DNA of 63,741 bases, filler included, from Chthonomonadaceae bacterium (GTDB lineage Bacteria; Armatimonadota; Chthonomonadetes; Chthonomonadales; Chthonomonadaceae): the NCBI GenBank assembly GCA_035650735.1. It is 4 parts of 4 records of this genome, joined end to end, with 100 filler letters (N's around TTAATTAATTAA, not from the genome) between each part and the next. Parts side by side here need not be neighbours in the genome. Positions count along the whole stretch, not along the records: positions 30,670 to 57,263 come from DASRGZ010000013.1; 3 more parts are not named here. The stretch is one strand, 5' to 3'. The notes under the pieces are model-generated. The model ran no database searches and was not told where the DNA came from. It saw only the letters and a list, made by a program, of their open reading frames with translations. The translations under genes and the position numbers were made by a program. Position 1 is the stretch's first letter, and each line of letters opens with the position of its first letter. Below, piece after piece: positions 13,675 to 57,363 of the stretch.

Positions 13675-13774
13675 NNNNNNNNNNNNNNNNNNNNNNNNNN
13701 NNNNNNNNNNNNNNNNNNTTAATTAATTAANNNNNNNNNNNNNNNNNNNNNNNNNNNNNNNNNNNNNNNNNNNN
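13675..13774. other. Artificial contig linker
   Basis: N-run around TTAATTAATTAA (stops in all six frames). Confidence 0.98.
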
Positions 13775-30569: not shown

Positions 30570-30669
30570 NNNNNNNNNNNNNNNNNNNNNNNNNNNNNNN
30601 NNNNNNNNNNNNNTTAATTAATTAANNNNNNNNNNNNNNNNNNNNNNNNNNNNNNNNNNNNNNNNNNNN
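30570..30669. other. Artificial contig linker
   Basis: N-run around TTAATTAATTAA. Confidence 0.98.
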
Positions 30670-42289: not shown

Positions 42290-42382
42290 GGAAGGGGTCT
42301 CCGGCAGTGCGACGCCTGCATAGCATCTTGCGGGGGACGCCGGCCAATCAACACAATGCGCCCGCCATTCTTGGCGAGGAAG

Positions 42383-42419
42383 GTCTCAATCCTCACCCGG
42401 CCCGGAGGCCGGGTGCTAA
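42383..42419 (-). CRISPR. Solitary CRISPR-like repeat (37 bp), no array
   Basis: Minus strand TTAGCACCCGGCCTCCGGGCCGGGTGAGGATTGAGAC: stem CACCCGGCC/GGCCGGGTG and a 3' end one base from ATTGAAAC. Confidence 0.7.
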
Positions 42420-42443
42420 GGAGCTCTCTCCGGGGGTGCTTCC

Positions 42444-42472
42444 ATTATAGAGGCGGCACGGCAGCCTGTCAA
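42444..42472 (-). promoter_or_regulatory. Consensus sigma70 promoter
   Basis: Minus strand TTGACA (42472-42467), 17-nt spacer, TATAAT (42449-42444). Confidence 0.85.
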
Positions 42473-42752: not shown

Positions 42753-43379
42753 TTATCGCAAGGCTGCCTGAGCTACACCGCGTTTCCAGGCGGGGCGCCT
42801 GGCCTCATAGGCGGCAATGTCGTCCGCGTGCTGCAGGGTCAGGCCGATGTCGTCCAGACCGTGGAGCAGGCAGTGGCGGCGGAACGGGTCAACCTCAAAC
42901 GGCGCCGAAAAGCCCTGGTTATCGGAAACCGTCTGCGCCTCCAGATCCACCGTGACCTGGTAGCCCGGCACCGTCTTGGCGCGCTCCATCAGCAGGTTCA
43001 CCGTCTCCTCAGGCAGCCGCACCGGCAAAATCCCGTTCTTGAAGCAGTTGTTATAGAAGATGTCGGCGAACGACGGGGCGATAAGTGCCCGGAACCCATA
43101 GTCGAGCAGCGCCCAGGGAGCATGCTCCCGAGAAGAGCCGCAGCCGAAGTTCTTGCCTGCCAGCAGGATCGGCGCGCCCTGATAGCGCGGGTCGTTCAGT
43201 TCAAATTCCGGGTTGGGCGTCGTGCCATCGTTCAGATAGCGCCAATCAAAGAACAGAAACTTTCCAAAGCCCGTGCGCTCGATGCGCTTGAGAAACTGCT
43301 TCGGGATAATCTGATCGGTATCTACATTCACCCGATCCAGCGGGGCCGCAACCCCGGTCACACGAACAAAAGGCTCCAT
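42753..43379 (-). CDS. leuD: 3-isopropylmalate dehydratase small subunit
   Basis: [38 protein letters not shown]. Confidence 0.97.
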
Positions 43380-43478: not shown

Positions 43479-44879
43479 CTACTCCCAGTCGCGGATGTCC
43501 ACCAGATGCCCGGCGATGGCGGCAGCGGCGGCCATCTGTGGGCTGACCAGGTGCGTGCGCCCGCCCTTGCCCTGGCGGCCCTCAAAGTTGCGGTTGGATG
43601 TGGAGGCGCAGCGCTGGCCCGGCTGCAAGATGTCGGGATTCATCCCCAGGCACATAGAGCAGCCCGCCTCGCGCCAGTCGAACCCGGCCTCCTGGAAGAT
43701 CCGATCCAGTCCTTCGGCCTCAGCCTGCCGCTTCACCGCCGCCGATCCCGGCACCACCATCGCGTGTACGTGTGGGTGCACCTTCCGGCCCCGGGCGATG
43801 GCGGCGGCGGCGCGCAAGTCCTCGATGCGCCCGTTGGTGCAGGAGCCGATGAAAACCTTGTCTAGCTCAAGGGACTGCATCGGCGTGTGCGGCTTCAGGC
43901 CCATGTACTCCAGGGCGCGCTCGGCGGCGCGGCGGTCCGACTCGGAAGGGAACTCCTCGGGCGCGGGCACCGCGCCGGTAATCGGGACGACCATGCCAGG
44001 GCTGGTGCCCCAGGAGACATAGGGGGCGATCTCCGCGCCGTCCAGTTCTACCAGCGCGTCGAACTGCGCGCCGGGGTCGGTGGGCAGGGCCTTCCACTCG
44101 GCCAGGGCTGTCTCCCACTCCGCGCCCTTCGGGGCAAACGGACGGCCCTCCAGATACGCAAAGGTCTTCTCATCCGGGGCGATCATGCCGGCGCGTGCGC
44201 CCGCCTCAATGCTCATGTTGCAAACGGTCATGCGACCTTCCATCGAGAGCGCCCGGATCACCTCGCCGGTATACTCCACGACATAGCCGGTGGCGCCGTC
44301 CGTACCGATCTTGCCGATGATCGCCAGGATCACGTCTTTGGCGGTGACGCCCCGGCCCAGCCGACCGTTCACTCGTATCTCCATCGTCTTAGGCCTGTCC
44401 TGCGGCAGGCACTGCGTCGCCAGCACATGCTCGACTTCGCTGGTGCCGATGCCGAAGGCCAGCGCGCCGAACGCGCCGTGCGTGCTCGTGTGGCTATCAC
44501 CGCAGACGATGGTCAGCCCCGGCTGAGTCAGGCCCAGCTCCGGCCCGATGACGTGGACGATGCCCTGCCGCGCGCTGTGCAGGTCGTAGAGGGTGATGCC
44601 GAACTCCCGGCAGTTGCGCGCCAGCGTCTCCATCTGAAGCTTCGAGATAGGGTCGGCGATGGGCAGGGAGCGGTCGGTGGTGGGAACGTTGTGATCCATG
44701 GTGGCAACGGTCAGATCGGGGCGGCGCACCTTGCGCCCGCTCATCCGCAGCCCGTCGAACGCCTGCGGCGACGTGACCTCATGCACCAGATGCAGGTCAA
44801 TATAGAGCAGCGCGGGCTTTCCCGGCTCCTCCCGCACCACATGCGCGTCCCATATCTTTTCAAACATTGTTTTGGGCAT
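43479..44879 (-). CDS. leuC: 3-isopropylmalate dehydratase large subunit
   Basis: [57 protein letters not shown]. Confidence 0.98.
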
Positions 44880-57263: not shown

Positions 57264-57363
57264 NNNNNNNNNNNNNNNNNNNNNNNNNNNNNNNNNNNNN
57301 NNNNNNNTTAATTAATTAANNNNNNNNNNNNNNNNNNNNNNNNNNNNNNNNNNNNNNNNNNNN
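57264..57363. other. Artificial contig linker
   Basis: N-run around TTAATTAATTAA. Confidence 0.98.

Follow-up and report, generated by a model that had tools for sequence, protein, structure and literature searches.

We analysed a window of 63,741 nt from the metagenome-assembled genome of a Chthonomonadaceae bacterium (G000; 6.52 Mb in 224 contigs, 97.6% complete). The window joins contigs C8, C9, C13 and C14. At the joints (13675-13774, 30570-30669 and 57264-57363) stand N runs and TTAATTAATTAA linkers, and the neighbourhood across them is not real. The locus lies on the minus strand of C13, and its features are listed in Table 1. Behind leuC and leuD stands a sigma-70-type promoter that agrees exactly with the consensus; 50 shuffles gave 0.4 promoter-like sites on average. 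A gap of 24 nt separates the promoter from a single 37-nt repeat, and a further 93 nt lie between the repeat and the start codon of a pilin-like gene. This layout agrees with an earlier note on this DNA, which had reported the promoter, the 24-nt gap, the single repeat, and 93 nt with a small hairpin and a ribosome-binding site ahead of the coding sequence. GGAG lies 9 nt upstream of the GTG start. The small hairpin also forms in the fold of the leader, which as a whole is no more stable than shuffles (z = -0.75). Unlike many sister copies of the repeat, the window copy has no A/C-rich tract in its 93-nt remainder, and a terminator search between the repeat and the pilin-like gene found none.

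Table 1. Features of the locus in the window, and solitary copies of a second repeat class elsewhere in the same genome (contig coordinates).
Feature	Position	Strand	Remark
leuC	43479-44879		upstream of leuD
leuD (3-isopropylmalate dehydratase small subunit)	42753..43379	-	upstream of promoter
Sigma-70-type promoter TTGACA-N17-TATAAT	42444..42472	-	12/12 consensus matches
Promoter hexamer TTGACA	42472-42467	-	followed by 17-nt spacer
Promoter hexamer TATAAT	42449-42444	-	
Solitary 37-nt type I-C-class CRISPR repeat	42383..42419	-	covariance model R1, 57.1 bits
Repeat, unpaired 5' TTAG	42419-42416	-	
Repeat, first stem arm	42415-42407	-	
Repeat, loop	42406-42403	-	
Repeat, second stem arm	42402-42394	-	
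Repeat, 3' tail AGGATTGAGAC	42393-42383	-	
Leader remainder, 93 nt	42290..42382	-	between repeat and GTG start
Small hairpin CTCGCCA-AGAA-TGGCGGG	42378-42361		within leader remainder
Prepilin-type N-terminal methylation and H-X9-DG protein, 256 aa	41519..42289	-	domain matches
Solitary 30-mer	C3:8091-8120		outside window
Solitary 30-mer	C19:48197-48226		outside window
Solitary 30-mer	C89:7863-7892		outside window
Solitary 30-mer	C121:514-543		outside window
Solitary 30-mer	C152:3580-3609		outside window
Solitary 30-mer	C162:11575-11604		outside window
Solitary 30-mer	C166:40668-40697		outside window

The downstream ORF scored above the cut-offs for both N_methyl/TIGR02532 (prepilin-type N-terminus) and TIGR04294 (H-X9-DG C-terminal domain). 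The gene had been described earlier as a pilin-like DUF1559 coding sequence; its pilin-like character stands, but Pfam DUF1559 did not match the 256-aa ORF at E ≤ 1 × 10−5. A search for related loci with the pilin-like protein in a collection of genome contigs found none. The genomic context of the window copy is housekeeping (leuCD and the prepilin-type gene) and not a mobile element. The copy is not carried by a virus, prophage or plasmid: its neighbours are leuC, leuD and the prepilin-type gene, in an arrangement common to the sister species G001. Of the 8 sequencing runs found to contain the window, none is an RNA run. Metagenome contigs from four DNA runs were identical across the locus and therefore gave no variation to use. 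As had been noted before, the window contains neither a second repeat nor a cas gene: the 37-mer has one match in the whole window at up to 3 mismatches (0 in 100 shuffles), and all Cas1, Cas6 and Cas5 matches of G000 lie on contig C93, outside the window.

The Rfam model CRISPR-DR9 aligned with all 37 positions of the repeat at 43.6 bits (gathering score 45; E = 4.2 × 10−8). We built a covariance model, R1, from the copies of the genome itself and found matches to it in 17 of 41 related genomes. Regular R1 arrays with a period of about 73 nt occur in G019, G001 (same genus), G020, G022, G023 and G026, and G035 holds 60 matches, a figure that is a count only and leaves their spacing aside. The repeat arrays adjoin cas5c and cas8c in G022 (G022:C4) and G026 (G026:C23), with cas7/csd2 present as well in G022. 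Judged from its sequence, the 37-mer is a type I-C repeat by descent, as had been supposed. A degenerate terminal repeat closes the array of G019 and fixes the orientation; no cas genes were found in the trailer flank of this array, and its contig stops at the leader end.

At the level of the whole community, metagenomes that contain the window also have arrays whose repeat is similar by 80% or more. In runs X2, X6 and X7, metagenome contigs for window positions 42372-42438 join two similar repeats across 24-40 other letters; these joined repeats are CRISPR arrays of the class of the 37-mer. When the metagenome contigs were searched exactly with the best-scoring copy, no array was found, and the only match was solitary. 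Three I-C repeat-like units, one of them full and two degenerate, stand in the cas3-cas5c interval of G022, some 160 nt ahead of cas5c (L057:8540-9010; G022:C4); they are a known kind of standalone repeat inside a cas locus.

In G000 the R1 model detected 15 solitary full-length matches (E = 1.4 × 10−12 to 4 × 10−4) on 15 different contigs. None of the 15 copies was tandem or regularly spaced, in an assembly of a kind that may miss arrays. The genome search proposed in the earlier note, for arrays of the 37-mer and for cas5d, yielded only these solitary copies, with no array and no Cas5d. The same note had set a CRISPR repeat against an element dispersed at many loci, and the 37-mer proved to be both, matching a CRISPR repeat and occurring at 15 loci. 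Solitary copies were also found in the relatives G001, G010, G013, G014, G016, G019 and G022.

The positions of 42 copies from 8 genomes were pooled, and SD-preceded starts of ORFs of at least 50 aa were counted around them. Such a start lay within 60 nt of 15 copies in sense and of 2 in antisense; the numbers rose to 21 and 5 within 120 nt, and to 27 and 9 within 200 nt. For G000 alone, SD-preceded starts of such ORFs were found no more than 200 nt away from 9 of the 15 copies in sense and from 2 in antisense. Three of the 15 sit 9-43 nt past the stop of a mechanically called upstream ORF, and five were judged by eye to precede a terminator-like hairpin and T-run, not a gene directly. AAAC directly follows the repeat in 10 of the 42 copies, where about 0.16 would be expected, and several copies extend on as AAACAAACAAAC.

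The genes downstream are ordinary: six prepilin-like genes, three GFO/IDH/MocA oxidoreductases, glnA, and genes for ribosomal protein S21, TerD, PrkA, AhcY, a glutathione peroxidase, NuoL and others. One G001 copy stands in the 16S rRNA leader. The copies are single and of the same sense, with no inverted pairs. Flanking direct duplications, which would be a sign of integrase or minicircle insertion, were not seen by eye in the printed flanks of the copies. G013, in which Cas1, Cas5d and Cas6 gave no match, has a 2-kb cluster of two copies plus a decayed third (L018, L025; G013:C1:177675-179600), which may be the remnant of a lost cas locus.

We aligned 40 solitary copies from 7 genomes and compared them with 500 shuffles. 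In this alignment 91.4% of stem cells were paired, and changes on both sides occurred in six of the nine stem pairs (27 cells); none of the 500 shuffles reached the observed values, and slid registers gave pairing of only 28-48%. The five lowest stem pairs hold in 40, 40, 40, 39 and 37 of the 40 copies. Pair 6-25 is GC, AU, UA or GU in all 40, with zero mismatches. The G-U pairs indicate that the hairpin belongs to RNA of the given strand. Conservation of at least 90% was found for the unpaired G4 and for 7 of the 11 tail positions; in the window copy, position 1 and part of the tail differ from the consensus. For the G000 copies alone, pairing was no better than in shuffles (46 of 500 reached the observed value). 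All three flavours of pair 6-25 occur as array repeats in relatives, and the covariation across genomes could have been inherited from differing source arrays.

Comparison with G001 indicated how these copies come and go. The G001 orthologue of the window locus has the same arrangement of leuD, promoter and pilin-like gene, with a 30-nt leader and no repeat, and its promoter is TTGACG-N18-TATAAT (11/12). This answers the synteny check proposed earlier: the gene order is the same, minus the repeat. Because G001 has the promoter and the gene without the repeat, the promoter belongs to the gene, and therefore the proposal of a collapsed array whose leader promoter was taken over by the gene is largely refuted. 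At three of four sites compared between G000 and G001 (rpsU leader, 16S leader and window gene), a copy is present in one species only. The rpsU- and 16S-leader copies of G001 are missing from the same sites in G000, and the 16S-leader copy is a clean insertion of about 44 nt.

One site is common to both species (G000:C176 and G001:C260); here 21 of 23 positions are identical in the lower stem and tail, the apex has been rebuilt, and the flanks are not alignable. The elements are thus gained and lost quickly. Such high turnover fits neutral or selfish insertion as well as function. The window copy itself is a young, lineage-specific gain and is somewhat atypical, with T at position 1, a GAGAC end and no A/C tract.

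Two other readings of the tail were tried and dropped. It resembles GUUUGAAAC motifs in the G000 rRNA leader, which suggested BoxA/Nus antitermination; the idea was unsupported, since the corresponding motif in G001 reads GUUUUGAAC, and the repeat of G001 is simply inserted. As for an upstream ORF, the UUG in the tail lies 1-2 nt from GAGG, which, read from the sequence, is too close for an SD.

The only cas locus of G000 (C93:2500-21337; L016, L017) consists of an I-B module (cas6 at C93:20564-21337, cas7/DevR, cas5b, cas3 and cas4) and a III-A module (cas10/csm1 to csm4). The locus also has cas1b and an array in which another repeat, of 30 nt, stands 80 times. An ORF of 552 aa between cas6 and cas7 had no NCBIfam match, and its position suggests that it is cas8b. 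A CARF-like ORF of 372 aa adjoins cas1. Cas5d (TIGR01876) had no match in this assembly, and the broad Cas5 family PF09704 matched the I-B cas5 on C93 only.

Among the 41 relatives, Cas5d was found in 11, but not in G001, G010, G013, G014 or G016. No Cas1, Cas5d or Cas6 match was found in G016 (3 contigs, 97% complete), G013 or G014, though all three carry copies; in G014 and G016, the two of these three that the search covered, the Cas5 family also gave no match. The I-G Cas5/6 fusion TIGR02165 matched none of the 41, a count that is uninformative since the control also matched nowhere. In the I-C-positive G022, two dispersed copies precede start codons by 14 and 18 nt, and a further copy stands upstream of cas5; in the I-C-positive G020, G021 and G023 dispersed copies were not found. 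These statements concern metagenome-assembled genomes, which can miss cas loci and arrays.

The 30-nt repeat of the I-B/III-A array in G000 is dispersed as well, in seven solitary copies with 1-5 mismatches (Table 1). Several of them lie shortly upstream of start codons, and in the 16S rRNA leader on C121 one copy has a promoter on either side. Relatives have solitary copies of the class too; G014 and G010, neither of which has a Cas6 match, are among them. The 30-nt repeat and the 37-mers have only their ATTGAAAC end in common.

Two loci combine repeats. At G000:C89:7761-7892 (L006), an I-B-type repeat is followed by 65 nt, an I-C-type repeat, about 30 nt and a terminator-like hairpin; this hybrid unit looks like a small RNA gene framed by the two repeat classes, and no target was found for its 65-nt insert. 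At G000:C152:3540-3609, far from the cas locus, an I-B-type repeat, about 36 nt and a degenerate second repeat form a mini-array of the CreA/CreR kind, and a search for its target found none.

A scan of species genomes for GGATTGAAACAAACAA returned at least 80 loci; the motif requires the tail, so only adjoining hairpins and the absence of an array count as evidence. Among the matches listed, 64 of 80 had no second repeat body within 300 nt, and from these 64 we chose by eye 20 with a G+C hairpin directly 5' of the motif. The 20 lone I-C-type repeats with (AAAC)n come from Proteobacteria, Desulfobacterota-like MAGs, Armatimonadota, Chloroflexota, Firmicutes, Lentisphaerota, Synergistota and others. 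An ORF starts within 110 nt in 16 of the chosen 20 (for example der, hisS-like and lolC-like genes), and one repeat precedes a tRNA. Five such genomes were checked, and Cas5d was found in none and Cas1 in two.

Loci such as L126, L135, L103, L095, L128, L104 and L092 show a lone I-C-type repeat, up to six AAAC units and a start codon; they come from distant phyla, and some of the genomes gave no match to Cas5d or Cas1. Slippage at the AAAC with which the repeat itself ends might give rise to the tract. In viral contigs, nine solitary hairpin copies of the 37-mer class occur on 8 contigs, several directly before an SD and ATG (IMG/VR L204, L208, L210 and L211); one contig of 17 kb has two copies, 4 kb apart.

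We tentatively propose, at somewhat short of even confidence and on sequence comparison, that the 37-mer is a CRISPR-repeat-derived, sense-oriented, cis-acting leader hairpin with fast turnover, its action being on RNA. Single type I-C repeat units would have been inserted into transcribed intergenic DNA as a dispersed family, most of them in sense, behind a promoter or a preceding gene and ahead of the ribosome-binding site of the gene that follows. Transcription through the repeat would give an RNA hairpin with a stable 9-bp G+C stem, followed by a single-stranded AGGAUUGAAAC tail that in many sister copies continues as an A/C-rich (AAAC)n tract. The module would serve to insulate the 5' part of the mRNA, or to define it, while the SD region stays open, and would affect mRNA stability, processing or translation. 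In genomes with a cognate Cas5d, the repeat unit would be a cleavage and binding site. In G000 the hairpin would work without Cas, or perhaps via the I-B Cas6, whose own repeat has the same AUUGAAAC end, because no cognate nuclease was found. The persistence of copies in genomes that gave no Cas1, Cas5d or Cas6 match, and the dispersal of the 30-mer as a second, unrelated repeat class, favour this proposal. The five G000 copies ahead of a terminator-like hairpin count against it, as does the window copy with its 93 nt of leader and no A/C tract.

There is an appreciable, though limited, chance that the window copy is instead a young insertion with no function, one of many units that some possibly selfish mechanism scattered and that are tolerated in intergenic DNA in a harmless orientation while they decay. 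Presence and absence at the orthologous sites of G000 and G001, the clean insertion in the G001 16S leader and the departure of the window copy from the consensus would all be expected from this, as would the pairing within G000, which does not exceed that of shuffles, and the best-scoring copy for which the metagenome contigs hold no exact array. The orientation bias could stem from purifying selection alone; antisense copies may be disfavoured because they would put CCUC beside the SD. However, the lower stem pairs in nearly all copies, pair 6-25 is never mismatched despite four pair types, and most tail positions are strongly conserved. The enrichment of AAAC after the repeat, the closeness of sense copies to start codons, and the one orthologous pair that keeps its lower stem and tail between flanks that cannot be aligned also speak against a non-functional insertion.

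In I-C systems Cas5d is the nuclease that processes repeats of this class, as reportedly described by Nam in 2012 and by Garside in 2012, and an unbinned Cas5d, or the I-B Cas6, might cut the leader below the stem and so couple gene expression to CRISPR-Cas. This had been one of the three earlier proposals, and we regard it as rather improbable; a search of the G000 assembly detected neither Cas5d nor any further I-C gene. The two G022 copies close to start codons and the one upstream of cas5 agree with it, and so do the Cas6 of G000 with its own dispersed repeat sharing the ATTGAAAC end, and the similar arrays in the metagenomes that hold the window. Against it are the negative Cas5d searches in G000 and in five relatives with copies, a Cas5-family match in G000 that is the I-B cas5 only, the lack of Cas1 in G013, G014 and G016, and the I-C-positive genomes in which dispersed copies are missing. 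Cas-coupled cleavage is a live rival, and nothing in the data requires it.

We hold it very improbable that the repeat is a small trans-acting RNA, either a crRNA-like guide of the CreA/CreR/scaRNA type or a decoy for Cas proteins of the Racr/SRU type. A solitary repeat right behind a strong promoter is described for viral SRUs by Camara-Wilpert et al. 2023 (PMC10651486), and same-class hairpins do stand alone on viral contigs. But the context here is chromosomal housekeeping DNA, no terminator separates the repeat from the gene, and G000 has no matching cas subtype that we could find. The crRNA-like RNA suggested earlier also lost ground for want of a second repeat and of a target. The 38 nt after each of 22 G000 copies gave only chance-size matches of 16-21 nt and cross-matches between A/C tracts; for the window copy no match in G000 was longer than 20 nt (18/20), and its first 24 nt had 0 exact matches in the viral contigs. 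Scarcely any credence is due to a collapsed array that left its leader promoter to the gene, or to a REP element mobilised by a RAYT transposase. REPs start with GTAG and then a palindrome, as does the copy consensus, and Y1 transposases are present in G000. Yet the G001 orthologue has promoter and gene with no repeat, none of the three Y1 transposase matches in G000 has a copy within 1.2 kb, and Y1 genes, which are common in the family, also occur in relatives without copies (such as G004, G006, G007 and G012). Moreover, the copies are single and in one orientation, not inverted pairs.

A wider proposal is that CRISPR repeats have repeatedly been co-opted as a general mRNA leader module, in which a hairpin, the AUUGAAAC handle and (AAAC)n would precede the ribosome-binding sites of ordinary genes, or rRNA and tRNA, in several phyla, phages and cas-less genomes. 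The module would be read by a non-Cas host factor, or by Cas nucleases where these are present. We consider this doubtful, though worth stating; if true, it would tie CRISPR RNA biology to everyday gene expression. Lone repeats have so far been known in phages, as RNA decoys, and inside cas loci, as regulators. The bacterial lineage described here has single repeats in large number and from two classes; they stand in leaders of housekeeping, stress, pilin-like and rRNA genes, and some of the genomes have no cas matches. If the copies are selfish insertions, they would be a sign of a novel route by which exact repeat units spread. Our literature search on lone repeats in mRNAs, in UTRs and outside cas loci, with subscription journals mostly outside its scope, found no chromosomal genome-wide leader copies described, and a search on the motif GGATTGAAACAAAC found no description.

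Among known systems, REPs and other small dispersed extragenic palindromes are alike in being short G+C-rich hairpins in transcribed intergenic DNA that vary between close relatives. They are unlike in that our copies are full CRISPR repeats with a conserved 3' handle, low in copy number, single and sense-oriented, with no RAYT linked to them. Viral solitary repeat units and RNA anti-CRISPRs (Racr, including the type I-C RacrIC1) were described by Camara-Wilpert et al. 2023 (PMC10651486). They share with our copies a lone repeat outside arrays and away from cas genes, often right after a promoter, with the I-C class included. The paper reports a matching host cas subtype for 82.9% of prophage SRUs. 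In contrast, the G000 copies are chromosomal, stand before housekeeping and pilin-like genes and number 15 per genome, and no matching cas subtype was found for them.

CRISPR repeats are also used for purposes other than interference in the CreA and CreR RNAs. Unlike such crRNA-like regulators (CreA, CreR and mini-arrays), the window copy has no second repeat on its contig and no target beyond chance-size matches. In their 2023 preprint, Shmakov et al. (PMC10120712) report that repeat-like sequences are enriched in cas loci and depleted in other intergenic DNA, with no excess in CRISPR-negative genomes; the elements they describe are situated within cas loci and direct effectors to promoters with a partial match. 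These elements and CreA/CreR are alike in using repeats beyond interference, and the G022 copy upstream of cas5 is such a case. Our copies, by contrast, are spread over the whole genome at a great distance from cas genes, and genomes that gave no cas match have them as well; this runs against the depletion trend. 

The arrangement at the locus, a CRISPR repeat between promoter and ribosome-binding site and then an unstructured spacer, is alike to that of engineered UTR sites. Engineered Cas6/Csy4 or direct-repeat sites in UTRs insulate or control transcripts, and DREDGE and PERSIST are said to be repeat-in-UTR devices of this engineered kind. Those are synthetic and need a nuclease to be supplied, whereas the present arrangement is natural and its nuclease was not found. 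Should the units prove to act on mRNA, the engineered repeat-in-UTR devices would have a counterpart in nature, and CRISPR repeats a new afterlife.
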